From an uncultured Gammaproteobacteria bacterium (GTDB lineage Bacteria > Patescibacteriota > Patescibacteriia > 2-01-FULL-39-33), in the NCBI GenBank assembly GCA_964573235.1, contig CAZNIV010000004.1, positions 1-52,646 of the forward strand: a stretch of 52,646 nucleotides of DNA, given 5' to 3'. The position numbers and the translations under genes are program-made. The notes below the pieces were generated by a model. The model did no database searches, was not told the origin of the DNA, and was given only the letters and a program-made list of their open reading frames with translations. The number at the start of each line of letters is the position of its first letter. The stretch's first letter is position 1. This document shows positions 28,113 to 47,774 of this stretch, one piece after another.

Positions 28113-28784
28113 ATGAAAACAAACAAATGGTGTCTTGGTTTCTTTGGTCTGATTCTGATGGTGGCAGTCGGGTGCGGTACCACAGTCGGTCCGGATGGCT
28201 CTCGCACTAGTGGCATTCTGATGCCCCAGCGCAAGGTGTTGGATCAATCGGGAGCACCTGTCGACAACAGTCGAATCGCCGTCGCCGCGGTCAATGCTGG
28301 CGGGATGGACAACAACACCGCTATCTTGGCCTTAGCCAACAACCCCGATCCGCAAGCGCGTGATCAAGCTGAGCGATTGCTTGGCAAAAGCATCGACGCT
28401 CAGGCGGAGATGTGGGGTGGACTTGGCGGGCGCGGTGCTGGACAGATGATGATTGGTCGCGGAAATATGGTTGTTCTAAATGGCATCGCCATGAACAAAA
28501 ATCCGTATTCGGCGATCGTGACGGCCTGTAGCTCTGGTACTGATATCCAGGTGGCGGCGGTCACAATTCCGGCAAGGTCGTATTCTTGGATACGCATGCG
28601 TCCAGGTAAATATGACTTTTATTTCTTTCGCCAAACAATGGTTGACGGAAAGATGGTCATGATTGACCAGTCGAAGATTCTTGGCTTTGAGGTCTTTGAA
28701 AAAGACATGGCTCAAGCAAGACCGGATGGTATGACTACCATTAATTGTAATTTTATTGTTAACGCCGCACAAACGGAGCGTTAA
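28113..28784 (+). CDS. Orphan lipoprotein, unknown function
   Basis: Signal peptide plus lipobox (GLILMVAVG-C). Visibly higher G+C than its neighbours. It has its own promoter and terminator. No family recognised. Confidence 0.7.
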   Translation: MKTNKWCLGFFGLILMVAVGCGTTVGPDGSRTSGILMPQRKVLDQSGAPVDNSRIAVAAVNAGGMDNNTAILALANNPDPQARDQAERLLGKSIDAQAEMWGGLGGRGAGQMMIGRGNMVVLNGIAMNKNPYSAIVTACSSGTDIQVAAVTIPARSYSWIRMRPGKYDFYFFRQTMVDGKMVMIDQSKILGFEVFEKDMAQARPDGMTTINCNFIVNAAQTER

Positions 28785-28798
28785 CACAACCTCACCCC

Positions 28799-28826
28799 CC
28801 CCGTGCCAGCAAGGCGCGGGGTTTTT
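28799..28826. terminator. Strong bidirectional terminator shared by convergent units
   Basis: CCCCGTGCC-AGCAA-GGCGCGGGG (9 bp, one G-U pair) followed by TTTTT, with a C-run on the other side. Confidence 0.75.
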
Positions 28827-28831
28827 ATTTA

Positions 28832-29254
28832 TTATGGCGTTTGACCAGTTGCTTCTTTGCCGGTGTTTTGACCAAGATTAGCTTTAATATTATTAATCAC
28901 AAAAGTGGCAATAATATAAGAAGACATTATGATAACTATGCCAATAACTGCTGCGCTAATAGTGGCTTTAGCTTTTTTAATTTTGTCTTCATCATCCATA
29001 GCCGTCATCCAATTCCAGCCCGCCCAAAGGATTAACAGAATTAAAATTATACTAAGAAAGCCTAATACAAAACTTACTAATTTACCAATTACAGTAACCA
29101 GATCTGCTTTAGCAAGTCCATTGCCGGCAATATCAAGATTAGCTATTGTTTTATCGGTAGCACCAGCTGCTCCGCAAAAAGGAGCAATTAAAAAGAATAA
29201 AGAAAAAAGAGACAATGAGATTAAAATATGGGTAATAATTTTTTTATTTTTCAT
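28832..29254 (-). CDS. VirB2/TrbC-like two-helix pilin-like protein, paralog 6 of 6
   Basis: Start trimmed to MKNKKIITHILISL (signal peptide). Core: ILLILWAGWNWMTAMDDEDKIKKAKATISAAVIGIVIIMSSYIIATFVI. Confidence 0.7.
   Translation of the reverse strand: MKNKKIITHILISLSLFSLFFLIAPFCGAAGATDKTIANLDIAGNGLAKADLVTVIGKLVSFVLGFLSIILILLILWAGWNWMTAMDDEDKIKKAKATISAAVIGIVIIMSSYIIATFVINNIKANLGQNTGKEATGQTP
28967..29037. repeat. 71-nt block nearly identical to 29451-29521 (3 mismatches)
   Basis: Hand alignment of paralogs 6 and 5 over the segment encoding WAGWNWMTAMDDEDKIKKAK. The flanks are much more diverged. Confidence 0.8.
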
Positions 29255-29264
29255 AGTATTAATT

Positions 29265-29729
29265 TTAGTAAATCGCTTTAGAATTGTTGTCGTTAATATT
29301 TTGAAGGGTGTCATCCATGTTTTTTTGTAAAGCCTTATTATCGACTTCGATAGGATATAAATTTGATCCAGCGCTATTGATAATAAAACTAACAATGGCG
29401 TAAGCAGATAATATTATTACCATGCCAATAACCGCTGCTGTAATGGTGCTTTTAGCTTTTTTAATTTTGTCTTCATCGTCCATGGCTGTCATCCAATTCC
29501 AGCCCGCCCAAAGGATTAACAAAACAAGTATTATAGCTAAAAAGCCCAAAGCCCAATTAATAATATTGATAATAATTGTTGTCAGTTCGTTAGTGTTTTG
29601 ACCAGTTCCTGCCAGCCCCGAAGCCGTTTTGAAGGCGTCTATTGGCTCAACGGCAAAGATAGGGTTAATAATGGTAAAAAAGCCGATGAGCAATAAAAAT
29701 GGGATTAAATATTGAGCTATTTTTTTCAT
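29265..29729 (-). CDS. VirB2/TrbC-like two-helix pilin-like protein, paralog 5 of 6
   Basis: Start trimmed to MKKIAQYLIPFLLLIG (signal peptide). Core: VLLILWAGWNWMTAMDDEDKIKKAKSTITAAVIGMVIILSAYAIVSFII. Confidence 0.7.
   Translation of the reverse strand: MKKIAQYLIPFLLLIGFFTIINPIFAVEPIDAFKTASGLAGTGQNTNELTTIIINIINWALGFLAIILVLLILWAGWNWMTAMDDEDKIKKAKSTITAAVIGMVIILSAYAIVSFIINSAGSNLYPIEVDNKALQKNMDDTLQNINDNNSKAIY
29451..29521. repeat. Partner of the 71-nt near-identical block at 28967-29037
   Basis: Same as above; the two copies lie 484 nt apart in the same orientation. Confidence 0.8.
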
Positions 29730-29745
29730 AGCAATTTGATATGTT

Positions 29746-30141
29746 TTATTTAGTAACTTGACCAATCGATTGAATTACAAAAGTGGCAATAATATAAGCA
29801 CTTAACATAATGATTACGCCAATGACTCCCTTTTTAATAGTTTCTTTGGCTTCATCGATTTTTTTACTGTCATCTCCCGCGGTCATCCATTCAAAACCAG
29901 CCTTGATGATTAATAAAAAAAGTAAAACACCAATTAAGCCAATAATAACATTGATGGTAAAACTAACGATTTCAAAAAAACCTGTTTGGCCGGTTAATCC
30001 GCTATTACCATAAGCTACGCTTACCTTGTCTAGTCCTTGACCCAATGGATTTTCTTCAGGAGCGCCCTCTGCGAAAACCAACCCAGGTGCAAGCAGGAGT
30101 ATCGTTAAAAAAAAATAGTTAATGGTTTCCTTTATCTTCAT
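29746..30141 (-). CDS. VirB2/TrbC-like two-helix pilin-like protein, paralog 4 of 6
   Basis: Signal peptide MKIKETINYFFLTILLLAPGLVFA. Core: FLLIIKAGFEWMTAGDDSKKIDEAKETIKKGVIGVIIMLSAYIIATFVI. Confidence 0.7.
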   Translation of the reverse strand: MKIKETINYFFLTILLLAPGLVFAEGAPEENPLGQGLDKVSVAYGNSGLTGQTGFFEIVSFTINVIIGLIGVLLFLLIIKAGFEWMTAGDDSKKIDEAKETIKKGVIGVIIMLSAYIIATFVIQSIGQVTK

Positions 30142-30183
30142 ATAGTTGTTAAGCCACTTATTTAAAATGGATTAACAACTATA
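30141..30183 (-). promoter_or_regulatory. 12-bp perfect inverted repeat abutting the paralog-4 start codon
   Basis: TATAGTTGTTAA (30141-30152) and TTAACAACTATA (30172-30183) with a 19-nt spacer. On the mRNA the 3' arm ends at the A of ATG 30141. No Shine-Dalgarno is visible. Confidence 0.45.
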
Positions 30184-30215
30184 TACCAAGAAAGGCCATT
30201 GGCCAGTCTTGGTAT
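30183..30215 (-). terminator. Hairpin directly after the paralog-3 stop (terminator-like, no clear U-tract)
   Basis: ATACCAAGA / TCTTGGTAT 9-bp stem with a 15-nt loop containing GGCCATTGGCC. Confidence 0.4.
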
Positions 30216-30223
30216 AGTAGTAA

Positions 30224-30631
30224 CTAGTTAGTAGCTCCGGTGAAATTAGCAATATTGGAGATGACGAAAGCGGCAATACTCCAAGAGGCAAGAATGATTA
30301 CCAAGCCAATAATACCGTTTTTCATTAAATCCTGAGCTTTTTTAACTTTGTCTTCGTCGCCCATAGCGGTCATCCAGATGAAGCCGGCCCATAGGATCAA
30401 CAAAACAGCGATCAAAGTTAAGAAACCAAGAATCCAATTAATAAAGTTTTTAACAAGAGTAATTAAATCTGTGTTTTGAGACACATTAATGCCAGTAGAC
30501 ATGTTACCTCTGTCGTAGTTAGTAGGAATAGTGGTCTGAGCATTTGCGCTCAATACAGGAACGATAACTAAAGCGGCCAAAGCCAAAGAAATGACAGTAG
30601 CAGCGATCTTTTTAATGGTTGTTTTTTTCAT
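30224..30631 (-). CDS. VirB2/TrbC-like two-helix pilin-like protein, paralog 3 of 6 (candidate major subunit)
   Basis: ATG 30631 lies 5 nt after a GGGGGUG Shine-Dalgarno; the track's TTG start at 30649 was rejected. Signal peptide ends ...VLSANA. Core: VLLILWAGFIWMTAMGDEDKVKKAQDLMKNGIIGLVIILASWSIAAFVI. Confidence 0.75.
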   Translation of the reverse strand: MKKTTIKKIAATVISLALAALVIVPVLSANAQTTIPTNYDRGNMSTGINVSQNTDLITLVKNFINWILGFLTLIAVLLILWAGFIWMTAMGDEDKVKKAQDLMKNGIIGLVIILASWSIAAFVISNIANFTGATN

Positions 30632-30682
30632 TATTTCACCCCCTTTCAAAATAGATTTTCAGTGAATTCATCACTGCTGTAT

Positions 30683-30711
30683 ATTATACTATATACCGCT
30701 TGGTTAAGCAA
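30683..30711 (-). promoter_or_regulatory. Dedicated promoter of paralog 3
   Basis: On the minus strand: TTGCTT (30711-30706), 17-nt spacer, TATAAT (30688-30683). Confidence 0.6.
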
Positions 30712-30718
30712 AATTAAT

Positions 30719-31072
30719 TTATACTTTAGGTGCAACAAAAAAGTCTAAGATAAAATTAATAATGGCGTAAGAGGCAAACAAAACAAATAAGCCGATAACT
30801 GCCCATTTCATCATATCCTTACCTTTAGTAATTCTTTTTTCATCGCCCTGAGATAAAATCCATTCCAAAGACCCCCAGACAAAAGCGATCAAGGCTAAGA
30901 TACCAGCCGAACCAATAGCGCCACTAATTAAGATGCTGGCAGCTCCAGCTAAATCCATAGTATTAGAGCCTAACGGATTGTTTAATTTGGAAGCAGGAGC
31001 CTGAGCTAGAATAGCAGACGGCATTATTAAAAATAAGGTGATTAAATAAAAATAATGTTTTTGTTTTTTCAT
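30719..31072 (-). CDS. VirB2/TrbC-like two-helix pilin-like protein, paralog 2 of 6
   Basis: Signal peptide MKKQKHYFYLITLFLIMPSAILAQA. Core: LIAFVWGSLEWILSQGDEKRITKGKDMMKWAVIGLFVLFASYAIINFIL. Confidence 0.65.
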   Translation of the reverse strand: MKKQKHYFYLITLFLIMPSAILAQAPASKLNNPLGSNTMDLAGAASILISGAIGSAGILALIAFVWGSLEWILSQGDEKRITKGKDMMKWAVIGLFVLFASYAIINFILDFFVAPKV

Positions 31073-31085
31073 ATGGTGGTTAAAA

Positions 31086-31625
31086 TTATTGCTTTACTTC
31101 AGGTATTTTATTTAAATTAGAGCAGGTTGTAGACCAACCAGTTATTTGAAATGGCTGAGCTTCACCAGCGCCATCGCTTAGTTGAATCTCATTTTTATTT
31201 GCACTTCCCCCAGCTAAAATGGTCATTATAGTATTAACAATTACCCAAGCTAATAAAACAATAAATAAACCGATTACGACCGCGACCATCATTTCTTTGG
31301 CCCACTTAATTCTCGCTTCATTGCCGTAAGAGGTGATCATAATAAAACCGGCCCAAATAAAGCCAATAACCGCTAAGACGCCACTTAAATAAACAATTAA
31401 ATTAGTAATGCCAATAATTAAACCGATCATGTCGCATAAAGTGCAGTTGCCACATTTAAAACAAGCCTCACCTAAGCCAGATAACAAATAGGGGCTAGCG
31501 GTGGTAGGTTTGGTTGTTTGTGTTTTACAGTCAGTAGATTGAGCAAAGACCCCAGATAGAGCTGGCAACAATAGACCAGCAGTAATAAGAGTAATGACAA
31601 ATATTTTTTTTAGGCCGTTTTTCAT
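31086..31625 (-). CDS. VirB2/TrbC-like two-helix pilin-like protein, paralog 1 of 6 (Cys-rich, extended variant)
   Basis: Signal peptide; six Cys (TDC, ACFKCGNCTLCD, TTCS). Core: VIGFIWAGFIMITSYGNEARIKWAKEMMVAVVIGLFIVLLAWVIVNTIM. The ATG overlaps the stop of the upstream solute-binding protein (SBP) gene. Confidence 0.65.
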   Translation of the reverse strand: MKNGLKKIFVITLITAGLLLPALSGVFAQSTDCKTQTTKPTTASPYLLSGLGEACFKCGNCTLCDMIGLIIGITNLIVYLSGVLAVIGFIWAGFIMITSYGNEARIKWAKEMMVAVVIGLFIVLLAWVIVNTIMTILAGGSANKNEIQLSDGAGEAQPFQITGWSTTCSNLNKIPEVKQ

Positions 31626-33016
31626 TATTTTAGGCTTTGGTTTATTTTAGATAAAGCGTTTTCTATAAAGAGAGTAAACTTTTCTCCCATTGGTAAATTA
31701 ACTAGATTATCTATCATTTCATTGTAAGCACTTTCGGCGGCTTGAGGATTTTTGCCTGTATACCAATTTTTAGCCGACAAAGTTTGACCGACAGCGGCCA
31801 CGGTATCTTCATTTTGGGTTTGAGAATCTAGTAAACTGCGTAAAGCAGCGGGGCGATTTGTTTTAGCTAAATATTTAGTCGCTTCTTTTTCACTGGCCGA
31901 AAAAATAACAAAATCCCAAGCCTCATTAGGGTATTTACTCTTTTTAGCAACAGATTGTAGCCAGTAGCTAGCATAGTTTACCGGATAAAAGGCATCAATT
32001 TGAGGTATTTTGGCGGTACCAAAATTTAATCGAGGTGCCTGACCGCGGATGGTAGGAATATCATAGTTATAGCCAAAAGTATAGCCCACTTTGCCGTTGT
32101 AAAATGCTTGCAAAGAATTAGGCATGTCTTTATTCCAAGTATAGACCGCTCTAACGGGATTAGAAAAATCTAAATAAAAGTTAATGGCGTCTAATCCGGG
32201 ATTAGAGCGATTAATGGTGTTCTTAGTAAAATTAACTGAGCCATTTTCATCTATCGGGGATAAGCCAAACTGGGCCATGTTTTGCATCATGATAATTGAA
32301 GCAACGTCAAAGCAACGATTAACGTTAGTGCACGTTCCCATGGCCGTTCCGGCCTGAATAATATTGCTCTTGTTGTCAATTTGTTTCATTTTTGTGACAT
32401 GCTCTTGAAAATCTTTCCAAGTAAAAGCAGGCTGGGCAATATTGGCACTATTCATAATATCTTTATTATAAAACAACACCAATGATTCTACGCTTAGGGG
32501 CAAGCCATAAACCTGATTATTTAATAAAATATCTTTATAAACCGCATCAGGATAATTGGTTTTTAGCTGAAGTAAAGTGGGGCTATTTTTGGCCACGGTG
32601 CGATAAATCACCTGCTTTTGAATGGTTCCCTCTTCAAAGCGATAAGCCATTTCAATGGTGCTTGGCATTGGTGCTAGTTTGGTTTCGTATTTTTGTACCC
32701 AATCATTATGAATGGTGTAAATATCTGGCCCACGATCTTCGGCAAAAGCATTTAATAAGGCTTGCTCATATTCATCAAAGCGAAATTTGCGGTAGTTAAT
32801 AGTAATATTTGGGTGTAGTGTTTGATAATCTTTAATAATATCAGTAAAAGCGTCGGCGTCATCCCAAAGGCTCCAATAATTTAAGGTAATTGGTTGCATT
32901 TTGCTTTGGGTTTTAGCATCGGTTAATTTACAGCCGAAGCCACTGGTTAACACAAAAACACCAACCAAAAATAAGCTGGTTAGTTGAAAAAAACTTTTGA
33001 CCTTAAGTTTATTCAT
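31625..33016 (-). CDS. Extracellular solute-binding lipoprotein (sugar-type ABC substrate-binding protein family), orphan
   Basis: Start trimmed to MNKLKVKSFF...LTSGFG-C (lipobox). SBP family 1-like features (ITLNYWSLWDD..., GPDIYTIHNDW, LVLFYNKD). No permease or ATPase gene is adjacent. Confidence 0.85.
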   Translation of the reverse strand: MNKLKVKSFFQLTSLFLVGVFVLTSGFGCKLTDAKTQSKMQPITLNYWSLWDDADAFTDIIKDYQTLHPNITINYRKFRFDEYEQALLNAFAEDRGPDIYTIHNDWVQKYETKLAPMPSTIEMAYRFEEGTIQKQVIYRTVAKNSPTLLQLKTNYPDAVYKDILLNNQVYGLPLSVESLVLFYNKDIMNSANIAQPAFTWKDFQEHVTKMKQIDNKSNIIQAGTAMGTCTNVNRCFDVASIIMMQNMAQFGLSPIDENGSVNFTKNTINRSNPGLDAINFYLDFSNPVRAVYTWNKDMPNSLQAFYNGKVGYTFGYNYDIPTIRGQAPRLNFGTAKIPQIDAFYPVNYASYWLQSVAKKSKYPNEAWDFVIFSASEKEATKYLAKTNRPAALRSLLDSQTQNEDTVAAVGQTLSAKNWYTGKNPQAAESAYNEMIDNLVNLPMGEKFTLFIENALSKINQSLK

Positions 33017-33037
33017 AGAGGATAAGTAATTGACTAT

Positions 33038-33067
33038 ATTATAACATTGAATATTATCTTCATGCAA
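33038..33067 (-). promoter_or_regulatory. Promoter of the SBP / pilin-like operon
   Basis: On the minus strand: TTGCAT (33067-33062), 18-nt spacer, TATAAT (33043-33038). It lies inside the rejected N-terminal extension of the track ORF. Confidence 0.5.
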
Positions 33068-33100: not shown

Positions 33101-34024
33101 TTAGGCAATGGCTAATTTTTTGTTATGAAGATGTGATTTAAAGAAAAAATAACCGACGACGCCAAAGGTGGTGATTGGTGAAATGTAGTTTGGTATTTCA
33201 AGGCCAAAACTATCTAAAAGCATAATGATACCTAAAAATAAAACCGAGTACATGGCGCCATTTTTAAGATAAATATATTTTTTTATATTATCAATATTGC
33301 CCACAGTGATTTGTCTGACGACAATTGCCCCTAAGCCATTGCCAATTAAAATAATCGGTACGGATAAAGTAAATGCAAAAGCGCCTAAAACACCATCAAT
33401 AGAGAAAGTAGCATCAATTACTTCTAGATATAATATTTTAGCGATGTCAGAGGCGCCACTAGATTTGCTTAACATTTTTTTCTCGGCCACCTCGGCATTC
33501 TGTTTAAAGCCGTGAGTAATAAAAAAGGCGGTAGAGCCAGTAACCGCACCAAGAGCCAATAGTGGGTTGATTTGGCCCGCCAAATAGACAGTTACCAGTA
33601 AAATAATAGAAACAATGGCATAAAACCAAGCCCCTTGAGAGGCAAAAAACTTTTCTCCGGGTAAGCCAAATGCTTTATCTTCCAAAAAGAGCCAATGAAA
33701 AAATAGGAACACTAAAAAGATACCACCACCAATAAGTAAAATTGGAGCGGATTGTTCTATGGCATGAATAACTGACGGATCATTAGAAAAGGTGGCGGTT
33801 AAAGCACCAATGACTCCTAATTTAGGATTAACTGCCCAGACAATAGCCCAGGGTAATAGACCTCGTACTACAAACACAGCAAAAATAATACCCCAAACCA
33901 AAAACCATTGGCGATATTTAGGCTTCATGGTTTGTAGAACATCAGCGTTGATAATGGCGTTATCAATACTGCAAATAACTTCAAACAAGCATAGCCCAGC
34001 GATCATGAGAAGTAGAGAAAACAT
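33101..34024 (-). CDS. TerC/DUF475-like integral membrane protein
   Basis: 307 aa, multi-pass, with N-terminal EVICSIDNAIINADVL resembling the DUF475/TerC-type motif. Confidence 0.65.
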   Translation of the reverse strand: MFSLLLMIAGLCLFEVICSIDNAIINADVLQTMKPKYRQWFLVWGIIFAVFVVRGLLPWAIVWAVNPKLGVIGALTATFSNDPSVIHAIEQSAPILLIGGGIFLVFLFFHWLFLEDKAFGLPGEKFFASQGAWFYAIVSIILLVTVYLAGQINPLLALGAVTGSTAFFITHGFKQNAEVAEKKMLSKSSGASDIAKILYLEVIDATFSIDGVLGAFAFTLSVPIILIGNGLGAIVVRQITVGNIDNIKKYIYLKNGAMYSVLFLGIIMLLDSFGLEIPNYISPITTFGVVGYFFFKSHLHNKKLAIA

Positions 34025-34073
34025 AATGAAATAAGTTATTAAGTGATTGCTGTATTATAATATATTTTAGACA

Positions 34074-34113
34074 AAATAAAAAGATCGCCTAAGCACACAG
34101 GGTGTGCACTTAG
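34074..34113 (-). terminator. Terminator-like hairpin after the 84-aa gene
   Basis: CTAAGCACAC / GTGTGC(AC)TTAG 10-bp stem with a 2-nt bulge. A T-rich run (CTTTTTATTTT) follows on the minus strand. Confidence 0.45.
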
Positions 34114-34127
34114 ACGACCAGATGACC

Positions 34128-34382
34128 TTAGGCCATTTTTTTTGCGGGTTGTTGCCCCGCGAGAGTTTGTCTCATGGCGTTATAGGCAGGAATTGGATCG
34201 TGGACCATCGGACCGCCCACATGGGTGGGGATGTTATGACGGCGGGGAATTTTGTGCACTTGGTTGTGGGCGCTGAATCTTTTTTCCATGCGGGAACCTA
34301 TGGTGGAAGTTCCTTCTTCACTCCCCAGGTCCGCTTTTTTTTCATTGCTCACAATTCGAGTTATTGGACGGTGATGATTCAT
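34128..34382 (-). CDS. Small soluble His/Pro-rich orphan protein (84 aa)
   Basis: ATG 34382 lies 8 nt after GGAGGAAG. It has its own promoter and terminator and is GC-rich. No family recognised. Confidence 0.5.
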   Translation of the reverse strand: MNHHRPITRIVSNEKKADLGSEEGTSTIGSRMEKRFSAHNQVHKIPRRHNIPTHVGGPMVHDPIPAYNAMRQTLAGQQPAKKMA

Positions 34383-34435
34383 GGGCACTTCCTCCACTTT
34401 TCTTGTTGCTTGTTATTAAAAAGGGCAAATAAAAC

Positions 34436-34492
34436 GGACCAATTTGGTCCATTCGTGCCTATAATAATAGCACCATTTATCGTTTTTGTCAA
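34436..34492 (-). promoter_or_regulatory. Promoter plus downstream palindrome of the 84-aa gene
   Basis: On the minus strand: TTGACA (34492-34487), 17-nt spacer, TATTAT (34469-34464). The palindrome GGACCAA-A-TTGGTCC (34450-34436) follows just after the predicted transcription start. Confidence 0.5.
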
Positions 34493-34560
34493 TAGTGATA
34501 GTTGTAAATTGAAAATAAAATTGCTATATTTAGCCAATAATATAAACAGTGATGGCGAGA

Positions 34561-34586
34561 TAAAAAGACGCGTCACAAGACGCGTC
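34561..34586 (-). terminator. Intrinsic terminator of the 133-aa gene
   Basis: GACGCGTC-ACAA-GACGCGTC hairpin followed on the minus strand by TTTTTA, 10 nt after the stop. Confidence 0.6.
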
Positions 34587-34595
34587 GGGTGGCTG

Positions 34596-34997
34596 TTAGG
34601 TTTTTATATTTTCCATCTTGATAAATGGACGGCCGTCTTTCTTAAGAAGGGTTAGTTGCACGGTGGGGTTTTTGACTGTGTTTGCCGGTGGCAAATATTG
34701 CATTTGGGCATAAACAGACTTAAGATTCCCCAGGTGACCTTCCAAAAAATTAATGATAATAGTTCGGTGGTTTTCGCTAGCCAGAAAGACCCCATTTTTT
34801 TTGGGATCAATGACGATAAGGGTTTTTTTGCCACACCCTTTGTCGCCAACTTCACTGAGACTAATTGACCACTCGGTTTCGTTGCTGATTTTCACCTGAC
34901 AGTAGCGAGATGGTTTTTTCAGTCGTTTGCCGATAATAACCAAGGCGGTTATGACTAGCAGACAGAGCACCAATAAACAGGTGGTTGTTGGGTTCAC
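34596..34997 (-). CDS. Membrane-anchored orphan protein (133 aa)
   Basis: GTG 34997 lies 7 nt after AAAGGAGG. N-terminal TM (CLLVLCLLVITALVIIG) followed by a roughly 100-aa domain. GC-rich; no family recognised. Confidence 0.5.
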   Translation of the reverse strand: MNPTTTCLLVLCLLVITALVIIGKRLKKPSRYCQVKISNETEWSISLSEVGDKGCGKKTLIVIDPKKNGVFLASENHRTIIINFLEGHLGNLKSVYAQMQYLPPANTVKNPTVQLTLLKKDGRPFIKMENIKT

Positions 34998-38349: not shown

Positions 38350-38739
38350 CTAAATATTTTTTTCGTCCAATATATTTTTAATTCCTTCTATAATTGTATC
38401 TAATTTAAAATCAGATTTAGTGTAATACTTATTGACGCCTAAGGCAAGATAGCCCTTAACTTTATCGGGACTAGCGGTGTTAGAAACTACAAAAATAGGA
38501 ATTTTTTGCCATTTTGTGCTGATTTTCAGTTCGATTACAAAGTCTAGTCCATTTTTAGGCCCTATAAGGTAGTGATCCAGCCAGATGACATCTATTTCTT
38601 GATCGCCGTTTAATTGTTTTTCAGCTTCCTCAATAGTTCGGGCGGTTAATACATCAAAGCCTTTTTTGTTCAGTTTTATTTTTATGGCGTCCTGTAATGA
38701 CATTTCATCCTCTACTACTAAAACTGTTTTATTCAGCAT
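38350..38739 (-). CDS. Stand-alone response regulator receiver protein
   Basis: VLVVEDE...VIWLDHYL (phospho-acceptor Asp) ...VVSNT...K. There is no output domain. Confidence 0.85.
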   Translation of the reverse strand: MLNKTVLVVEDEMSLQDAIKIKLNKKGFDVLTARTIEEAEKQLNGDQEIDVIWLDHYLIGPKNGLDFVIELKISTKWQKIPIFVVSNTASPDKVKGYLALGVNKYYTKSDFKLDTIIEGIKNILDEKNI

Positions 38740-38755
38740 ATATTAAATTATTAAA

Positions 38756-41101
38756 TTAAGCTAAGGCTTTCGTTCCTTCTTTTTTCTTCATGCCACCCAA
38801 GGGGATGGTTATAAAGAAGGTTGAACCTTTATTTTCTTCTGATTTAAAACTAACGCTTCCCCCAGTAGCCTCCATAATTGATTTAACTAGATACAATCCC
38901 AGACCCGTGCCCTCTGTGCTTGTTTGGCGTACATTATCTGCTCGGAATAGTTTCTCAAAAATTTTGTTTTGTTGGCCCTTTGGCACGCCTAGGCCGGTAT
39001 CAGAAATGGCTATTGTTAAGTCTTTTTTGCCCACCGTAATGTCTAGATTAACCTTGCCACCGTCGGGGGTATATTTTACGGCATTAGATAGTAAGTTTTG
39101 AAAAATAATGGTGGTTAATTTTTCATCTAGCATCATTATTTTTATTTTGGGGTCATAGTTTTTGGTAAAAATAATGTGCTTTGAAATGACTTGTGGCTTT
39201 AAGTCACTAATGGCGCTGTCGGCTATGGTTCTTATGTCAACCTCTTTTGGTTCTACTAAAAAAGTGCCAAGCTCTAGGCGGGAAACATTAAGTAAGGCAT
39301 TGACCAGTTCTACCATGCGTTGGTTACCACGATATATTTCATTAAGAAATTCTTTTTGTTGCTTATTTATTTTTCCGGCGTCGCCCGCTAAAAGCATCTC
39401 AGTGTACCAGTTAATGGCTGAAAGCGGAGTGCGTAGCTGGTGTGAAGCCAAAGAAACAAATTCTGTTTTTGCCTTATCAATTAAAGCTTCTTTTGAGATA
39501 TCTGTAGTAATCATAGAAGCCCCAACTACTTTTCCAGAGACATCTTTGATTGGGGATCCGGAAATGAGAACTGCCACCAGGGTGCCATCCTTTCTCTTTC
39601 TTTTGGTTTGGATATGCTTTAAGCTTTTTCCGCTAAGAAGATTGTTATATAATTTGGCTGTTTCGGGAAGCTCTTCTTTTGGGATGATAATTTTAATGGG
39701 TTGGCCAATCATTTCGCTGGCTGAATAACCATAAACTAATTCAGCGCCATCATTCCAGCTCGTTATTATATTGTTTAAATCTATGCTTATAATTGGTTCA
39801 TTAGCACTTCTAACGATTGTGGCCAATTCATCGGAAATATTTTTTTCCTTTCCCATATCCTCAAGTACATTTAAAAGGGCCTTCTTCTGATTTTCAACCT
39901 CAATTTGCTTGTTTTCTAACACTTGGGTTTTTTCGATAATCTTTTCATCGAGGTTTTTATAGAGATCATTTAAATTGTTAGACATTGTATTAAAAGCGTC
40001 AGATAATTGCCCAAACTCATCTCGGCGTTTAATTTTTATGGTTTGATTGAAGGTGCCTTGGGAAATTTTTTTAGCAAAAGCGATTAAAGCGGTCATTGGT
40101 TGGGTAAAAATAGAAATCATCTTAAATAAAGCGTAGGAAACTAAAAAAATGGAGAAAAAAATTAATATTATTAAGAGAGAAATAGTGGAATAGATTGTTG
40201 CACTAATGCTTTCGGTACCAATTTCGGATACTAGATAAAAAGGATATTTTTCGATTTTAATCACATTGAGAAATTCTATTTCGCCGTCGATTTTGTCGTT
40301 ATATTTTACTATTTGGTTGATGTGTTTATTGCGAATGGTGTCTAGGGCACTGTCGTATTGTAATGCGGTTATTTTTTTATTTAAAAATTTTTGCGATGAA
40401 TTGATAATCGCTTCTTCTTTGGCGGTGAGTTGGCCGAGGCTTTTTAAGAAACGATCTGGCATGGTATTGCTGATAATCACACCAAAGGCGTCCGTTAGCA
40501 TTATTTTTGAATTTTTTCTTAATTCGCTAAAAGAAAGGGCGGTATTGATTTTATTTCCCGATATTTTAGATACAAAAACACCAATGACTTTTTTATCTTT
40601 ATTTAAAACGGGATGTGAAAAATAGTAACCTAATTCATTACTTGTTTTTCCAAGTAGCATATCAACATGAGGAATGCCCATTATTGATTGTTTAAAATAT
40701 TCCCTAAAGCTATAATTTCCCCCCACAAATGACGGGTCAGTAGAAATTAGGGTTTTACCAGTCTCGTCCAATAAGTATAAGGATAGAATTTCGCTATCAG
40801 TTTGAGCATAATCCAAAAAAATATTTAGAAGCTCCTCTCTTCGTGGTTCAGTGCGGTCTAATAAGTATTCAGTAACCCTAGTTCTAGTGCCGAGCATTTT
40901 TGCAAAAAGCGCATTATTTTCAAATATTTGAAAGAGTTCATGCCCTTGTTCAATATTTAAAGATTCAACCTGTTTTTGATTTTCGTTTTGAAGGGTTGAG
41001 TTTAGATAAAAGTAGGTAGTGAAACCAACTAATAAACATAGAAAAATACCCCCAACGATTAAGAGGCTGACGAGCTTGGTTTTTAATGGTACTATGCGCA
41101 T
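38756..41101 (-). CDS. Sensor histidine kinase (extracellular Cache-like domain, HAMP, PAS, HisKA, HATPase)
   Basis: Two TMs flank a roughly 270-aa outside domain. HAMP (DEFGQLSDAFNTM), PAS, H-box (SHQLRTPLSAI), N box (LLSNAVKYTP) and G boxes (DTGLGV, GTGLGLYLV). Confidence 0.9.
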   Translation of the reverse strand: MRIVPLKTKLVSLLIVGGIFLCLLVGFTTYFYLNSTLQNENQKQVESLNIEQGHELFQIFENNALFAKMLGTRTRVTEYLLDRTEPRREELLNIFLDYAQTDSEILSLYLLDETGKTLISTDPSFVGGNYSFREYFKQSIMGIPHVDMLLGKTSNELGYYFSHPVLNKDKKVIGVFVSKISGNKINTALSFSELRKNSKIMLTDAFGVIISNTMPDRFLKSLGQLTAKEEAIINSSQKFLNKKITALQYDSALDTIRNKHINQIVKYNDKIDGEIEFLNVIKIEKYPFYLVSEIGTESISATIYSTISLLIILIFFSIFLVSYALFKMISIFTQPMTALIAFAKKISQGTFNQTIKIKRRDEFGQLSDAFNTMSNNLNDLYKNLDEKIIEKTQVLENKQIEVENQKKALLNVLEDMGKEKNISDELATIVRSANEPIISIDLNNIITSWNDGAELVYGYSASEMIGQPIKIIIPKEELPETAKLYNNLLSGKSLKHIQTKRKRKDGTLVAVLISGSPIKDVSGKVVGASMITTDISKEALIDKAKTEFVSLASHQLRTPLSAINWYTEMLLAGDAGKINKQQKEFLNEIYRGNQRMVELVNALLNVSRLELGTFLVEPKEVDIRTIADSAISDLKPQVISKHIIFTKNYDPKIKIMMLDEKLTTIIFQNLLSNAVKYTPDGGKVNLDITVGKKDLTIAISDTGLGVPKGQQNKIFEKLFRADNVRQTSTEGTGLGLYLVKSIMEATGGSVSFKSEENKGSTFFITIPLGGMKKKEGTKALA

Positions 41102-41107
41102 GGGTGG

Positions 41108-42262
41108 TTAGTTTTTAGATTTTAAATCACTAATTATTTTTTTAAGTTCCATCATTTTTATTTCTCTGTTTACCATTAGTCTGTTTAATTTTTCAGACTC
41201 CGCTAGCATTTGGCTATTTTTTTCATTTGATTTAATAAGTTTTTCCTCTACTTCTTTGCGGGAAGAGATATCTCTCATAACACATATGGAATGTGTTTGA
41301 TTGTTTATTTTAACCATGGAGACGGATAATTCGACAATAAATTTTTTTCCAAGTTTATTTTTTACTCGTAAGTCGATTATTTTACCTAATTCTCCATTTT
41401 CATCCGGACTAGTAATGTTTAGGATGTTTTTTGTGCCATTTTTATTTTCATCGGCAATAATATATTCATTAAGGTTTCTTTTTAATATTTCCGATTCGGC
41501 ATAGCCAAACATTTTTTCTGCTGTTTTGTTCCATAAAATAACTTTATTCTCCGCATTAGTAATGGCCACGGCTTCTTTGACGGAAGAGGAAAAAGAACGA
41601 AACATTTCAGCATTTTGTTTTATTTTGTTGGCGTTTTTTTCAATATTATAAAAAATATATAAGATTAAAAATAAAATAATGACTAAAATACCAGCTTGGT
41701 CGGTTTTTAAAAACGCTTCATTATGCCATTTATTGGCCGGATAATCCATGGCAAATACGGCAGTAATTTTTTTTGTTTCGTAATCAACGATGGGAACCAA
41801 AACACTAACCCAAGTTCCCCAGCGGTCGGTAGCCGGGGTGGTTATGAGGGGTTGTTTGGTGGTAAATGGTTTATGATATTGAGGATTAGCCTCGGAATAT
41901 TCTTGTCCGGGTGGTGAATAATCTTTAGAATCAACTGGTTCGGAATCGGCTATAAAAAAAAGCTTATCCTCAACTTGAGTATAAAGATACGCAAAACGAG
42001 CATTGGTATTTAATTTAATGAGATTTAATAAGCTGGTTTTTAGTTGTTGATACTCTTTTTTTTCAAGATCAGTAGTATTTAGACTGAGCTTATTTAAAGC
42101 ATCCCTAGGAAGCATTGATTCCGCCGCCAAAGATAAGTTTAGAGTTATCTCTGAGGTGATTAAAAGGCTTTTATTCCAGACATAAAATACATACCATACG
42201 CTTAGGGTAAGTAATACCGCAAAGAGGAGTAAAAATATTATTTTTATTTTATTTGTTTTCAT
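41108..42262 (-). CDS. Membrane sensor protein with an extracellular domain, PAS and coiled coil, and no output domain
   Basis: Start trimmed to MKTNKIKIIFLLLF. Two TMs, then PAS-like (AVAITNAENKVILWNKTAEKMFGY...) and a C-terminal coiled coil. It ends 6 nt before the kinase gene. Confidence 0.65.
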   Translation of the reverse strand: MKTNKIKIIFLLLFAVLLTLSVWYVFYVWNKSLLITSEITLNLSLAAESMLPRDALNKLSLNTTDLEKKEYQQLKTSLLNLIKLNTNARFAYLYTQVEDKLFFIADSEPVDSKDYSPPGQEYSEANPQYHKPFTTKQPLITTPATDRWGTWVSVLVPIVDYETKKITAVFAMDYPANKWHNEAFLKTDQAGILVIILFLILYIFYNIEKNANKIKQNAEMFRSFSSSVKEAVAITNAENKVILWNKTAEKMFGYAESEILKRNLNEYIIADENKNGTKNILNITSPDENGELGKIIDLRVKNKLGKKFIVELSVSMVKINNQTHSICVMRDISSRKEVEEKLIKSNEKNSQMLAESEKLNRLMVNREIKMMELKKIISDLKSKN

Positions 42263-42288
42263 GGGGTTTGCGGTATAGTTTGCAAAAA

Positions 42289-42702
42289 TTATTTTAATTT
42301 TTGAGAAATAAAACAAGCTTTATATTTTTGATCGGCGTTCATAATGTGGTCAATTAGCCAATCTTCTAAAAAGTCTATTAGCATGAAGGCGACTTCCGTG
42401 GTATCTTCTGGGTATTTTTCTTTTAATGCCGTCAAAGAAGCATTAAATTTCTCGTGTTCCTTAATATGTTCTGTGGCCCCGCTATAGTTAAAATCTTTAA
42501 AATACTTTTCTTCAGTTTGAAAATGAAATTTTTTGTACTCTACCAAGCCATTAAAAATATTTTTTAATTTTTCTTTACTGGTATTAGTATTTATTGCCTC
42601 TAGTAACTCATTAATTATAGCAAATAGATGTTTGTGCTGATCATCAATTAATTTTACGCCAACGCTATATCTTTCTTCCCATTCTAGCTTTTTGGTAGTC
42701 AT
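42289..42702 (-). CDS. Bacteriohemerythrin (hemerythrin-like metal-binding protein)
   Basis: LEWEERYSVGVKLIDDQHKHLFAIINEL..., with the His/Glu/Asp ligand pattern (HF..EE..., H..EH..F, DWL..HI). Confidence 0.85.
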   Translation of the reverse strand: MTTKKLEWEERYSVGVKLIDDQHKHLFAIINELLEAINTNTSKEKLKNIFNGLVEYKKFHFQTEEKYFKDFNYSGATEHIKEHEKFNASLTALKEKYPEDTTEVAFMLIDFLEDWLIDHIMNADQKYKACFISQKLK

Positions 42703-43130: not shown

Positions 43131-43658
43131 TTATTTTCGTAAATTGGCGCTACCGCTAAAGTTAAGGGAATAAGCATCGCTCACAATAACAGAAGTAGAA
43201 GAACTCTTCAGGGTAAAGCTAATTTTTATTATATCAGGCGTGCTCGGAAGAGAAAGATTAGAAAAAAGTAAGTTACTCGCCGTAACTTTACTATTAGTTA
43301 GAGCTATAGGCGCATTGCTTCCTTCGGTTATATAAAGTACGCCATTATTTTCTGAAAAAACCGTTGGATTGGTGGCTGATTGTTGGGTGGCAATGCTTAA
43401 ATTATTAGCGCTATTATAAATGGTGGGGCTATTAATTTGGTTGCCGTCTCGAATCGTTTGAGTTATTGTTTTTATAACAGAAAACCCCTGGTCATTTACT
43501 TCAAGAATCATTTGATGTCGTAGTCTAGAAGCAGTTAGGCTATTTGAAAAAGAGGCCATGGATATTATAAAAATAGCAAAGATGGCGATATAAATTAGGG
43601 TTTCTATGAGGGTAAAACCAAGGGGGAAGTTTTTTTTGTCTGATAATTTATTTGTCAT
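43131..43658 (-). CDS. Prepilin-type N-terminal cleavage/methylation domain protein (minor pilin)
   Basis: Class III signal ...FPLG-FTLIETLIYIAIFAIFI with Glu at +5; 175 aa. Confidence 0.75.
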   Translation of the reverse strand: MTNKLSDKKNFPLGFTLIETLIYIAIFAIFIISMASFSNSLTASRLRHQMILEVNDQGFSVIKTITQTIRDGNQINSPTIYNSANNLSIATQQSATNPTVFSENNGVLYITEGSNAPIALTNSKVTASNLLFSNLSLPSTPDIIKISFTLKSSSTSVIVSDAYSLNFSGSANLRK

Positions 43659-43659
43659 A

Positions 43660-46206
43660 TTAGTGTCTCCAGAAGGCGAATGAAAAGGGGTTATTTATTG
43701 ACTGTGGTAAAGTTGTTTCTAGTGCAGTTACATCGGCATTGGTTAAGGTAAATGTACCACTAGAGGTCATAGTCAATTTTTTAGCTAATAAATTATTAGC
43801 ACCATCAGAAACCATAAACATTAGCTCCGATTCGTTTAGTGGGTTAGTTTGTATATCAAAAGAACCAAATGGGCTAATAGGGGCTGGAGCGAGGATTAGG
43901 TCGGACTGAAGAGTAAAAGTTGAGCCATTGCCCACATACCAGTCAAAAGCGGTTGAAGTTTTATCGGCGTATCTTATAACTGATCTAGTGGTAGCGCCAG
44001 AAATTAACCAACCGGTAGAGACTAATTTTTTGCCAGCCAAGGGGGTGTCACAAGAATTATCAATATTAGCAGTGTTGGTCCAAGAACTACCGCTCCAGTA
44101 GCCAATTTGTAATACGCTACCGTCATTTCCGATTGAGGCAAAAACAATCTCATTACTATGTGGATTAGCTGAAATGTCTAAGTTGGTTGCGTCGTCTTTA
44201 AAAGTCGGTGGCGTAGTTACTGATCCCCAAGTACAAGTTGCGGTGCCACCAGTGCAGGTGCGGTATCTGACACCATTGGTATTGCGCTTGCCAACCGAAT
44301 TAGCCCAAACGATCATAACATCTCCAGATAGTGATTCGTATTCAACATCAAAGTCCTCAACATCCTGAGCGTTACCAACTACCTCTAAGGAAGTTTCTGA
44401 GGCCGTTGTTGGTTCGTTACCCCAGGCGGTACCACTCCAAATCATAGTGGATAAATCAGAATTTGAATCAGCCCAAATAGTTGAAATTAAATCTTTTCCT
44501 GCCCGTTTATCCCAAGCCATTTTAACCCACTGTATAATGCCAGAGGTTCTTACTGGATTTAGGTTGGTGGCGGTTGTCCAATTTGCGGTGCCACAGCCAG
44601 AGCTACCCAATTTTGTGACATAAGCGAGTTCGTTGGTGGTGGCGACATTGGTACTGTATAAAATCATTGCATCGCCAGAATTATTTTCGTAGGCAATATC
44701 AAAGCGTCTGGTTGATCCGGTTCCACCTACAGTTTTTGAAAATTCTTGAGTCCAAGTAGATCCATTAAAACACATAACATTTAATACGCCAGCGGAAGTA
44801 ACAAAGCCGACTATTGCTTCTTTTTTGGTAGGAGATGTTCTGATAACAAAAGAGTTTCCAGATGAAGAAGTTATGGTGTTTATTTGTGATCCAAAAGTGT
44901 CAGTGTATTTATCATACTGTCTATATTTGGGGATTGTAGTGCCGTCACCATAAACAATCACCCCATCGCCACCCTTTTCCTCGTTGGTAATGGTGCAATT
45001 TTTAGTAGTTCCAGGGGTTAGGGTTACCGAACCGCTTGAATTGCAGTCACCACTAAAGGTTTGAGTGTAATCTTGATTATTTGATTCAGATAAGGCATAA
45101 GTGCCAGAATTAAGAGTGGTGGATGCTCCTAATATAATAACTGAGGTACTGGCTTTGTAAGGAGCGAAATCAGCCGCTACTTTTGTTCCGCTATGATTTA
45201 TAACAGTTTTATTTACGGTAAGAAAGGATAATTTTTCTTCGTTGGTTAGTAGGCAATTTTTTGTTGTATTGGGGTAAAGAGTGACCAATCCCGATCCGTT
45301 GCAATCACCGCTAATGGTTAAGTTGTAATTAGAATCAGCTACCTGAGAAACAGTGTGGTTGCCCGAATTAAATACATTAGCAATTCCCGAAGTTACTGGG
45401 TTAGTATCAACTTTTATTTGAAAATCAGATATTGTTTTGGTTAGGCCGTGATTAATGACATTATTGGTCGCTATGAGATTGGATGGCTTTTCTTCGTTGG
45501 TAATAAGGCAGGTATTATTAGTGCTCGTGCCAATAGTGATGAGACCAGTGGAATTACAATCACCGCTGAAGGTTTGAGTATAGTCAGGATCATTTTTTTC
45601 AGAAATAGCATAAGTCCCCTCGTTAAATATAGAAGAGGTGCCAACGGTTATAGTAGTGGTGCCCACAGTAAAAGGAGCAAAATCAGCTGCTATTTTTGAT
45701 CCCCCATGATTAATAACTGTTTTATTTACTGTTAAGCCAATGCCAGTATTTAAAATAGCTCTCCAGTTTGTAAAATAGGTACTTAGAGTTAGGGAGTTTG
45801 TTTTAGATACTTGATCGGCCCAAGAAATAGTGACATCTACCTTTTTTTGATCTGGATTAATTGTTGAAATATTCAGGGTTCGATTAAAAATTCCTATAAT
45901 ATCCGAACTTCCTGAAAGATTCCATTGATTACTTGATGTGGATAGGCCATGATTTCCGTCTGATAAATTGATAAAATTAGCATCGCGAATATTTCTTGAT
46001 GCCTCTAAGGCCTCCTCGGCTAAAATAGTGGCTAATTCTTTATTGGCGGAGTTTTGTGTTCCGTTACTTACATTTATTAAAATATTAGTTACCACAATAA
46101 CAAAAATTAAAAAAATAGAAATAGAAACTAAAATTTCTACCAAAGAAAAGCCCGCCGTTTGGTGTTTGGTAGATTTATTTTTAATAAAAAATAGTTCCCT
46201 TTTCAT
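43660..46206 (-). CDS. Giant prepilin-type protein: pilin N-domain, three tandem ~85-aa Cys-pair domains, and a ~435-aa Trp-rich beta-repeat C-domain
   Basis: ...HQTAG-FSLVEILVSISIFLIF prepilin signal, three repeats ending C(L/T)(I/L)TNEEK, and a C-terminal region with recurring FD(I/V)xYExxSGDxM(I)(L/V) and WSG(S/T)xW modules. Confidence 0.8.
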   Translation of the reverse strand: MKRELFFIKNKSTKHQTAGFSLVEILVSISIFLIFVIVVTNILINVSNGTQNSANKELATILAEEALEASRNIRDANFINLSDGNHGLSTSSNQWNLSGSSDIIGIFNRTLNISTINPDQKKVDVTISWADQVSKTNSLTLSTYFTNWRAILNTGIGLTVNKTVINHGGSKIAADFAPFTVGTTTITVGTSSIFNEGTYAISEKNDPDYTQTFSGDCNSTGLITIGTSTNNTCLITNEEKPSNLIATNNVINHGLTKTISDFQIKVDTNPVTSGIANVFNSGNHTVSQVADSNYNLTISGDCNGSGLVTLYPNTTKNCLLTNEEKLSFLTVNKTVINHSGTKVAADFAPYKASTSVIILGASTTLNSGTYALSESNNQDYTQTFSGDCNSSGSVTLTPGTTKNCTITNEEKGGDGVIVYGDGTTIPKYRQYDKYTDTFGSQINTITSSSGNSFVIRTSPTKKEAIVGFVTSAGVLNVMCFNGSTWTQEFSKTVGGTGSTRRFDIAYENNSGDAMILYSTNVATTNELAYVTKLGSSGCGTANWTTATNLNPVRTSGIIQWVKMAWDKRAGKDLISTIWADSNSDLSTMIWSGTAWGNEPTTASETSLEVVGNAQDVEDFDVEYESLSGDVMIVWANSVGKRNTNGVRYRTCTGGTATCTWGSVTTPPTFKDDATNLDISANPHSNEIVFASIGNDGSVLQIGYWSGSSWTNTANIDNSCDTPLAGKKLVSTGWLISGATTRSVIRYADKTSTAFDWYVGNGSTFTLQSDLILAPAPISPFGSFDIQTNPLNESELMFMVSDGANNLLAKKLTMTSSGTFTLTNADVTALETTLPQSINNPFSFAFWRH
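44974..45738 (-). repeat. Three tandem in-frame ~255-nt repeats encoding aa 157-411 of the giant pilin
   Basis: Units begin (L)TVNKTVINHGG/NNVINHGL/TVNKTVINHSG and end ...DCN..G......(T/N)..C.ITNEEK. Repeats 1 and 3 are the closest pair. Confidence 0.7.
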
Positions 46207-46660
46207 TTATGGTAATGTTCTTATTCTTGGCGCTGTTTGTGATGGTAATGGTTCCGGTTGTTAGTGTTGAGCCAGTTACTTTTTCGAAAATTATTTCTGA
46301 AAGACCAGTGGCTGTTATATTGCTCGGGAAAGTTAATCCGTTATTAGTTGGAGCGCTTTGCGCATAACTATTGCCTTTAAATATTTTAACTTCAGTAGAA
46401 AATATTTTTATTCCCCAACGAGAATCATCTTTTCCGGATTGAGCGTTGGCCTTGGCTAAGCGAAGTGCTTCTACGATAGTAGTAGTGGTTATTTCTAGAT
46501 TGCTATTTGATTTGAAAGAATTAAATAGCAGGCTAGATAGGGAAAATAAAATGGAAAAAATACTAATAACTACCAAAATTTCTATCAAAGAAAATCCTTT
46601 TTTAGTAGCGATTAGATTGGATTTTTTGTAAAAAATATTATATTTGATTGGATAAATCAT
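46181..46660 (-). CDS. Prepilin-type protein, GspH/FimT-like minor pseudopilin
   Basis: ...ATKKG-FSLIEILVVISIFSILF, then IVEALRLAKANAQSG typical of the GspH/FimT family. Overlaps pilC by 23 nt and the giant pilin gene by 26 nt. Confidence 0.75.
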   Translation of the reverse strand: MIYPIKYNIFYKKSNLIATKKGFSLIEILVVISIFSILFSLSSLLFNSFKSNSNLEITTTTIVEALRLAKANAQSGKDDSRWGIKIFSTEVKIFKGNSYAQSAPTNNGLTFPSNITATGLSEIIFEKVTGSTLTTGTITITNSAKNKNITINEKGTIFY

Positions 46661-47771: not shown

Positions 47772-47774
47772 ATA

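Follow-up and report, generated by a model that had tools for sequence, protein, structure and literature searches.

A solute-binding protein gene conserved in tandem with VirB2-like pilin genes near the chromosomal origin of a patescibacterium

Why should a row of pilin-like genes stand directly behind the gene of a sugar-type solute-binding protein (SBP), with neither a secretion machine nor an importer beside it? The question is raised by contig CAZNIV010000004.1 (assembly GCA_964573235.1), whose 52,646 nucleotides we analyzed as a whole and refer to as the window. Six consecutive minus-strand open reading frames (ORFs) between positions 28832 and 31625 encode the pilin-like proteins, numbered here from the SBP gene onward as pilins 1 to 6, and the ORF listing returned all six at the positions given in a first-pass annotation of this DNA. 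That annotation had proposed that the SBP and the pilins may be a surface, filament or membrane module complete in itself, and no fragment of a conjugation apparatus. Our analysis points to a different answer, which we hold to be the probable one: the array encodes pilus subunits of a dispersed type IV secretion system (T4SS), with pilin 3 as the major subunit, and the SBP is a clade-specific surface glycan receptor that works with pilin 1.

We first consider the pilins. All six exceed the gathering score of the Pfam family PF18895 (T4SS_pilin; 33.7-41.1 bits against 26.6), in agreement with the first-pass annotation, which had named a T4SS-pilin family enriched in the candidate phyla radiation (CPR), and six adjacent ORFs above one curated threshold are not a chance pattern. 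The NCBIfam model "pilin-like conjugal transfer protein" gave near- or sub-threshold matches for all six proteins, and PF04956 (TrbC) matches were found in array genes of some relatives. Pairwise identity among the six is 20-47% (mean 30.5%). Each contains three hydrophobic segments, from which we judged a signal-peptide-like N-terminus followed by two transmembrane helices with a short charged loop between them, the build that the first-pass annotation had described. An AlphaFold model of pilin 3 is a helical hairpin (helices 5-30, 56-88 and 93-131; predicted local distance difference test, pLDDT, 77.7 overall and about 90 in the core). Canonical VirB2/TrbC/TraA pilins likewise combine a signal peptide, two hydrophobic helices and a short charged loop, but they are usually encoded by a single gene in a virB/trb operon of diderm bacteria, whereas the genes described here form a tandem array. 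Two details of the earlier description needed adjustment. The quoted sequence motifs describe pilins 3, 5 and 6 well but match pilins 1, 2 and 4 only loosely, and the inter-helix loop, although charged, is approximately net-neutral, with acidic residues followed by basic ones (for example DDEDKIKKAK), rather than simply basic. Pilins 5 and 6 share 80% DNA identity over a 175-nt core and 47% amino-acid identity and are, judged by this comparison, a recent, lineage-specific duplication.

The gene ahead of the array encodes a family-1 (carbohydrate-type) SBP. Its profile matched 301 PDB sequences, solved sugar SBPs among them, with 4r9f MBP1 as the best (E 1.3e-24), and among 1796 homologues the closest, about 50% identical, are named Buchananbacteria, Falkowbacteria or Patescibacteria. 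Across 14 homologues 81 positions are invariant, many of them aromatic. The longest possible ORF reaches a TTG at 33067, giving 463-480 aa depending on the start; the ATG at 33016 is most likely the true start, because the resulting 463 aa agrees with the 453-465 aa of the homologues. Following the hydrophobic N-terminus is a G-F-G-C-K site that is invariant in the 14 homologues; it is not a canonical L-x-x-C lipobox, yet its position fits a putatively lipid-anchored protein. At the two loci inspected in this respect, lgt, the gene for lipoprotein diacylglyceryl transferase, follows the pilin array at a distance of a few genes (L003, 18619-19434; L086, 14278-15069), a placement compatible with lipid anchoring of the SBP. 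Genes for Lgt and LspA are present in the neighboring regions of relatives.

The two kinds of gene are physically joined. In the window, the TAA stop of the SBP gene overlaps the ATG of pilin 1 in the sequence TAATG (31623-31627), as the first-pass annotation had observed. Relatives of the SBP are encoded in at least 486 of the species-representative genomes scanned; 80 loci were fetched, and their pilins were identified with a hidden Markov model built from the six window pilins and run on all ORFs. A PF18895 gene followed the SBP gene at once in the first four relative contigs inspected (4/4), and at species level a pilin gene lies directly downstream of the SBP gene, on the same strand, in 76 of 79 evaluable loci. 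Between the two genes lie 9 nt in the median, and in 54 of 77 cases they overlap or are no more than 20 nt apart. The linkage is not unique to this contig, and these data show translational coupling between the SBP and pilin 1, which have stayed together as a pair in the different species.

The surroundings of the pair are variable. Fourteen loci share the contiguous layout of the window, in which the SBP gene is followed by 4-9 pilin genes, and 39 loci have a split layout, in which the SBP gene and one pilin gene are separated by 2-7 kb of unrelated genes from an array of about six. The inserted genes include those for a helix-turn-helix/RodZ-like protein, a methyltransferase, UPF0102 and a GT2 glycosyltransferase, and the commonest pilin total per locus is seven. 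ComM stands upstream of the SBP in 46 loci, the window alone has TerC/DUF475 there, and L002 has another gene; because this neighbor is not fixed, the SBP-pilin 1 pair has been kept while its surroundings changed. The link is clade-specific, because a more distant lineage, represented by L085, has a seven-pilin array without an SBP. Many of the species-representative metagenome-assembled genomes that carry the cassette (L006, L008, L013-L015 and others) are titled "uncultured Gammaproteobacteria bacterium", which looks like a labeling error on Patescibacteria genomes.

No transporter accompanies the pair. A Pfam scan of all non-overlapping window ORFs of at least 110 aa found no ABC (ATP-binding cassette) permease or ATPase, as the first-pass annotation had also reported, and clustering of about 1,500 neighboring genes revealed neither a conserved ABC-transporter family nor a conserved VirB4-sized one within 10 kb on either side in the 80 loci. 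These results bear on the most conventional explanation of the locus, namely that the SBP is the ordinary receptor of an ABC importer whose permease and ATPase are encoded at a distance, its adjacency to the pilins reflecting shared expression of envelope proteins only. The SBP is a bona fide family-1 protein with strong matches to the SBPs of sugar importers, there are known cases of orphan SBPs relying on a permease encoded far away (PrgZ with the chromosomal Opp is an example), and a permease may sit elsewhere, our search having covered the contig and the loci. We nevertheless consider this explanation unlikely. The close adjacency has persisted although the SBPs of the relatives have diverged to approximately 45-50% identity with that of the window; the pair stays together where the upstream genes change and the main array moves off; and the adjacent pilin belongs to an orthogroup of its own.

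This last point emerged from a comparison of pilin positions between loci. When the seven paralogues of 30 split-type species were compared between loci, 90% of best matches linked genes of equal ordinal position, and for positions 1, 2, 3 and 7 the share was nearly 100%; the paralogues are therefore old and order-conserved, a positional orthology that appears not to have been described before. Window pilin 1 has its best match at the SBP-adjacent position 1 in 25 of the 30 split loci, and window pilin 3 at the first-of-array position in all 30; pilin 2 has no consistent positional orthologue in these loci. Cysteine is present in 60 of 77 SBP-adjacent orthologues and absent from 268 of 289 array pilins. 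On this sequence evidence the SBP-adjacent pilin appears to be a distinct, Cys-bearing orthogroup, and apparently a new one. Pilin paralogues have been suggested to serve variation or host range (PMC12102498). Fixed structural roles fit our data better than variation: positional orthology speaks against the published idea of arrays made for variation and points to a heteromeric filament with one major subunit.

The position of that putative major subunit is marked by a structured RNA element. In the window, the twin hairpin behind pilin 3 has a minimum free energy of -36.9 kcal/mol (z -8.1), and 0 of 200 shuffled sequences were as stable. In 30/30 split loci, strong structure characterizes the 90 nt that follow the first array pilin (median z -6.2); a terminator-like fold follows the last array gene in 87% of them, and the other junctions have none. 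Most contiguous loci also carry a strongly structured spacer after the first-of-array orthologue (z -1.6 to -9.1). Within the split clade, the spacer contains a conserved twin-hairpin motif of 26 base pairs, 24 of which covary (24/26), and 92% of the alignment cells are paired, compared with 75% in shuffles and 35-44% when the partners are slid. A covariance model of the motif, R1, matched at no position other than that behind the first array pilin, and there on the coding strand; loci that had not been used to train it were among those matched. In the window and in the other contiguous-type loci R1 had no match, and the window hairpins are analogous to the split-clade motif, not demonstrably homologous to it. 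Rfam yielded no match for the motif in six loci, and an RNA element behind a major-pilin candidate appears to be undescribed. Examples of the motif are found in Falkowbacteria-type genomes at L001 16745-16839, at L017 14577-14675 and in about 38 other loci (alignment A4, model R1). At L059 there are three copies, one behind each of three tandem first-type pilins.

We regard the twin hairpin as a candidate attenuator or 3' stabilizer. An internal promoter is possible in the spacer ahead of pilin 3, and at the far end of the array the 90 nt past the pilin 6 stop fold with -34.6 kcal/mol (z -3.5) and include a GC-rich hairpin that marks the end of the operon (Table 1). In its arrangement, the first array pilin, which is window pilin 3, looks like the major subunit, with the putative attenuator or stabilizer behind it and minor subunits following.

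The machinery that such a filament would require is not encoded nearby. VirB4, VirB6, VirD4 and relaxase were all absent from the Pfam-scanned ORFs of the 52-kb window, as the first-pass annotation had stated, and no virB/trb operon beside VirB3/VirB4 was found in the window or within 10 kb on either side in the 80 relatives, none of which has its array beside a full T4SS. The window also lacks a relaxase, coupling protein or integrase near the array, so that it does not fit a conjugative element, whether an integrative and conjugative element (ICE) or a plasmid. The region is the chromosomal origin, with rnpA, yidC, dnaA and dnaN, and further carries polA, smc, PBP1, ruvC and glycosyltransferase genes in the Pfam scan; a fragment of a mobile element is ruled out by this setting.

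Arrays of this kind have been described before. Quinonero-Coronel et al. (2025; PMC12102498) surveyed 3,035 Patescibacteria genomes with PF18895 and VirB2 profiles, locating pilin genes with the CONJScan T_virB2 profile, and reported pilins in 1,948 VirB4-positive assemblies, of which 1,135 only had them near virB4; about 40% of the pilin-bearing assemblies had no pilin gene near virB4. In 383 assemblies the pilin genes stood in tandem, forming 441 arrays with 2-11 members; their mean identity was 25%. The survey also related the Patescibacteria T4SS to MPF-FATA and noted that ABY1 T4SS loci tend to adjoin comF, recG and radA (PMC12102498). Three genomes with the SBP-pilin cassette (L017, L066 and L070) belong to the class ABY1 and are VirB4-positive in the published tables. 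TrsD and VirB4 are genes 209-210 of the L066 genome, with VirB2 at genes 281 and 294-299; in the L017 genome VirB4 and TrsD are genes 572-573, with VirB2 at gene 711. In both, 70-140 genes separate VirB4/TrsD from the pilins, and every VirB2 gene is flagged as not near virB4. For L070 the presence of VirB4 is the only record. In L017 and L066 the T4SS machinery is dispersed on the chromosome, not absent, and the empty surroundings of the window array probably reflect such a layout; both the pilin array and its separation from VirB4 were already known. The term "solute-binding" is absent from the main text of the survey (PMC12102498), a literature search found no paper uniting CPR, VirB2 and a substrate-binding protein, and the operon link from SBP to pilin in almost every related species appears to be new.

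The proposal of a self-contained module, assembling without a T4SS ATPase, is to be weighed against this background. The empty neighborhoods, with zero T4SS parts in the window or within 10 kb on either side in the 80 relatives, speak in its favor, as does the free-standing seven-pilin array of L085, where neither SBP nor VirB4 is in view. We consider it quite improbable all the same. Extraction of VirB2 and TraA from the membrane during their biogenesis requires a VirB4-containing machine, and the relatives checked encode VirB4/TrsD elsewhere. In Saccharimonadia the same pilin family lies inside the T4SS cluster and both are essential, as found for the pilin series of Ca. Southlakia epibionticum (Wang et al. 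2023, PMC10633639), and tandem PF18895 arrays are a published T4SS component (PMC12102498, PMC10633639, PMC12857230). The first-pass annotation had itself named two findings that would speak against it, a lack of significant profile or structure similarity to VirB2-type hairpins, and relatives with the array directly beside a full T4SS and an SBP linkage confined to this contig; neither was made. Similarity to solved VirB2 structures, in fold or in sequence, was not significant, which speaks neither for nor against.

In the reading that we favor, the chromosomal VirB2-like (PF18895) array of this ABY1 bacterium, which resembles Buchananbacteria or Falkowbacteria, would supply subunits to an MPF-FATA-related T4SS, with the VirB4/TrsD ATPase genes elsewhere on the chromosome, as in ABY1 relatives. 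All six pilins would be exported by the Sec pathway and inserted as two-helix hairpins, from which state the distal VirB4 machinery would extract and polymerize them. Pilin 3 would be the abundant major subunit and the other pilins minor subunits with fixed roles, pilins 4-6 lying behind the twin hairpin. At the cell surface, the putatively lipid-anchored SBP and the Cys-bearing pilin 1 would together serve as a ligand receptor for the pilus or the T4SS, with the SBP recognizing a host-surface glycan or capturing a host-derived sugar instead of acting as the receptor of a neighboring ABC importer.

Comparison with known systems shows which parts of this arrangement have precedents. The surveyed arrays (PMC12102498) share with the present one the family PF18895, tandem divergent paralogues (mean identity approximately 25% there and 30.5% here), a chromosomal location, the lack of a relaxase and a position often away from virB4; that survey centered on virB4 neighborhoods, whereas the present comparison resolves order-conserved orthogroups with a major-subunit signature. 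Southlakia ML1 (PMC10633639), also a monoderm patescibacterium, has six structurally similar, sequence-divergent VirB2-like pilins as well, the number six being that of a review (PMC12857230). It belongs to Saccharimonadia and not to ABY1, and its pilins stand within the T4SS cluster with no SBP mentioned, whereas the array here is detached and coupled to an SBP. PrgZ of pCF10, an MPF-FATA system, is a lipoprotein SBP, as the window SBP may be, and is likewise encoded with T4SS genes and without a permease of its own. PrgZ, which recruits the chromosomal permease Opp, binds an oligopeptide and imports pheromone to induce conjugation, whereas the SBP described here is of the carbohydrate type and coupled to a pilin gene. 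In the ChvE-VirA system of Agrobacterium tumefaciens, a sugar-binding SBP reports host-derived sugars to a T4SS and shapes host range; the chvE gene, however, is not linked to vir, and ChvE works for an ABC transporter as well and signals by way of a sensor kinase; no kinase is adjacent here.

Several observations weigh against a T4SS pilus with an associated glycan receptor. To our knowledge, a pilus has never been observed in any patescibacterium, and VirB4 cannot be demonstrated for the genome from which the window derives, which is represented by the 52-kb contig only. The AlphaFold model of the SBP, built from 14 sequences, is poor (pLDDT 58, second lobe unresolved) and was not used for pocket or fold; the ligand of the SBP and any contact with pilin 1 are putative, and an ABC permease for it may exist elsewhere in the genome. 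The possible promoter before pilin 3 is a partial consensus, its -35 hexamer agreeing at 3/6 positions, and was not listed by the consensus scan, in which the number of sites across the window did not exceed that in shuffles. With respect to the pilins, TrbC (PF04956) remains below threshold in the window (best 22.7 against 27.9 bits), three of the six scoring at all, and neither sequence nor fold similarity to canonical VirB2/TrbC/TraA pilins is significant. A Foldseek search of the pilin 3 model against the PDB found nothing significant (E 1.7 or worse), and the pilin profiles matched solved VirB2 (8cue, 8exh) at E 1.4-7.6, which is not significant.

The details of these searches bear on one further alternative, in which the PF18895 proteins would not be filament subunits but would stay in the membrane and oligomerize into a channel supplied by the SBP, a new kind of SBP-dependent transporter. 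The top Foldseek ranks were generic helical hairpins, with the ATP-synthase c subunit and CnrX among them; an archaeal conjugation pilus came no higher than rank 38 (E 7.7). VirB2 was the sole pilin among the weak PDB profile matches, and with the deeper profile chemokine-receptor transmembrane segments outscored it. A channel would be consistent with generic membrane hairpins as the best fold matches, with the lack of a significant match to solved pili and with an SBP that has no nearby permease. It is nonetheless very improbable, given the family-level links to TrbC/VirB2 profiles, a major-plus-minor gene layout that is typical of filaments, and the lack of both a precedent and an energy-coupling component. 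The fold search itself is uninformative, as a two-helix hairpin is too simple a shape to discriminate, and the label "VirB2-like" rests on family profiles and published annotation.

The role of the Patescibacteria T4SS has been called "completely unknown" (PMC11665869), and reviews speculate that the T4SS and its pilus take up host molecules (PMC12857230). A stronger version of our interpretation, which we put forward as speculative and rather doubtful, would make the ABY1 T4SS pilus a device for acquisition instead of export: the SBP would dock on the Cys-bearing pilin, and a VirB2-type filament or channel would receive from it a host-derived glycan or sugar, giving an SBP-dependent route of uptake or host recognition in which no ABC permease takes part. 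How many major subunits are made per minor subunit would be governed by the twin-hairpin RNA, which is conserved in the lineage. In the single species put to the test, the Patescibacteria T4SS proved essential. That a carbohydrate-type SBP is tied in an operon to one specific pilin in dozens of species offers an independent clue, from genomes, to what this T4SS recognizes. Being soluble, the SBP can be produced and tested for ligands with no need for a culture of the organism.

Table 1. Features of the SBP-pilin locus and of neighboring genes in the window
Feature	Position	Strand	Description
SBP, family 1 (carbohydrate-type), 463 aa	31625-33016	-	PF01547 SBP_bac_1, 78.4 bits
Pilin 1	31086-31625	-	PF18895, 38.4 bits; SBP-adjacent orthogroup, Cys-rich ectodomain
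Pilin 2	30719-31072	-	PF18895, 39.2 bits; TrbC E 5e-4; divergent; 13 nt after pilin 1
Spacer before pilin 3, 87 nt	30632-30718	-	Possible promoter TTGCTT-17 nt-TATAAT; strong Shine-Dalgarno GGGGGTG
Pilin 3	30224-30631	-	PF18895, 40.5 bits; first-of-array orthologue
Twin-hairpin RNA element	30142-30223	-	After pilin 3; second hairpin abuts pilin 4 start codon
Pilin 4	29746-30141	-	PF18895, 38.1 bits
Pilin 5	29265-29729	-	PF18895, 41.1 bits
Pilin 6	28832-29254	-	PF18895, 33.7 bits; last array gene
GC-rich hairpin	28799-28821		Terminator-like, 9 pairs, 8 G-C; between array and convergent gene 28113-28784
Lipoprotein-like ORF, 223 aa	28113-28784	+	No known family; converges on array end
TerC/DUF475 membrane protein	33101-34024	-	PF04332, 159 bits; directly upstream of SBP gene
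Type IV pilus cluster	43131-49424 and 51636-51989	- (43131-49424)	PilB, PilC, prepilins (Pfam)
848-aa protein	43660-46206	-	N-terminal methylation motif and SpaA-like domain; type IV pilus cluster
PilC	46638-47771	-	Type IV pilus cluster
PilB	47775-49424	-	Type IV pilus cluster

The immediate flanks of the cassette are not conserved with it. The upstream TerC/DUF475 gene is possibly co-transcribed with the SBP and pilins, and no homologue of it was found in the 80 related loci (0 of 80). Upstream of this gene lies a GC-richer stretch of approximately 570 nt (34025-34600; z -3.5 against shuffles), which ends in a strong terminator at 34119-34083 (minus strand, 17 bp). It contains no Pfam-positive ORF and has no Rfam match even at E <=1, and may be an unannotated small gene or RNA. 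On the other side, the convergent lipoprotein-like ORF was rejected as a conserved partner of the array: its one match, to an L007 gene in the equivalent convergent position, is weak (24% over 192 aa, E 0.07 in a small database).

The cluster at 43-50 kb was likewise considered as the missing T4SS and ruled out, being a type IV pilus system with PilB, PilC and prepilins, a machine different from a T4SS. A TfoX-like gene lies near it, and a histidine kinase and response regulators accompany it in the region of 38-50 kb. Between the pilin array and this cluster is a minus-strand sensory block (38350-42702) that encodes a dCache-HAMP-PAS histidine kinase, a receiver-only response regulator, a PAS protein and a hemerythrin. 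The window contains no tRNA genes and no Rfam matches. Two tandem sigma-70-family genes are located on the plus strand just upstream of polA, at 9630-10493 and 10607-11458.

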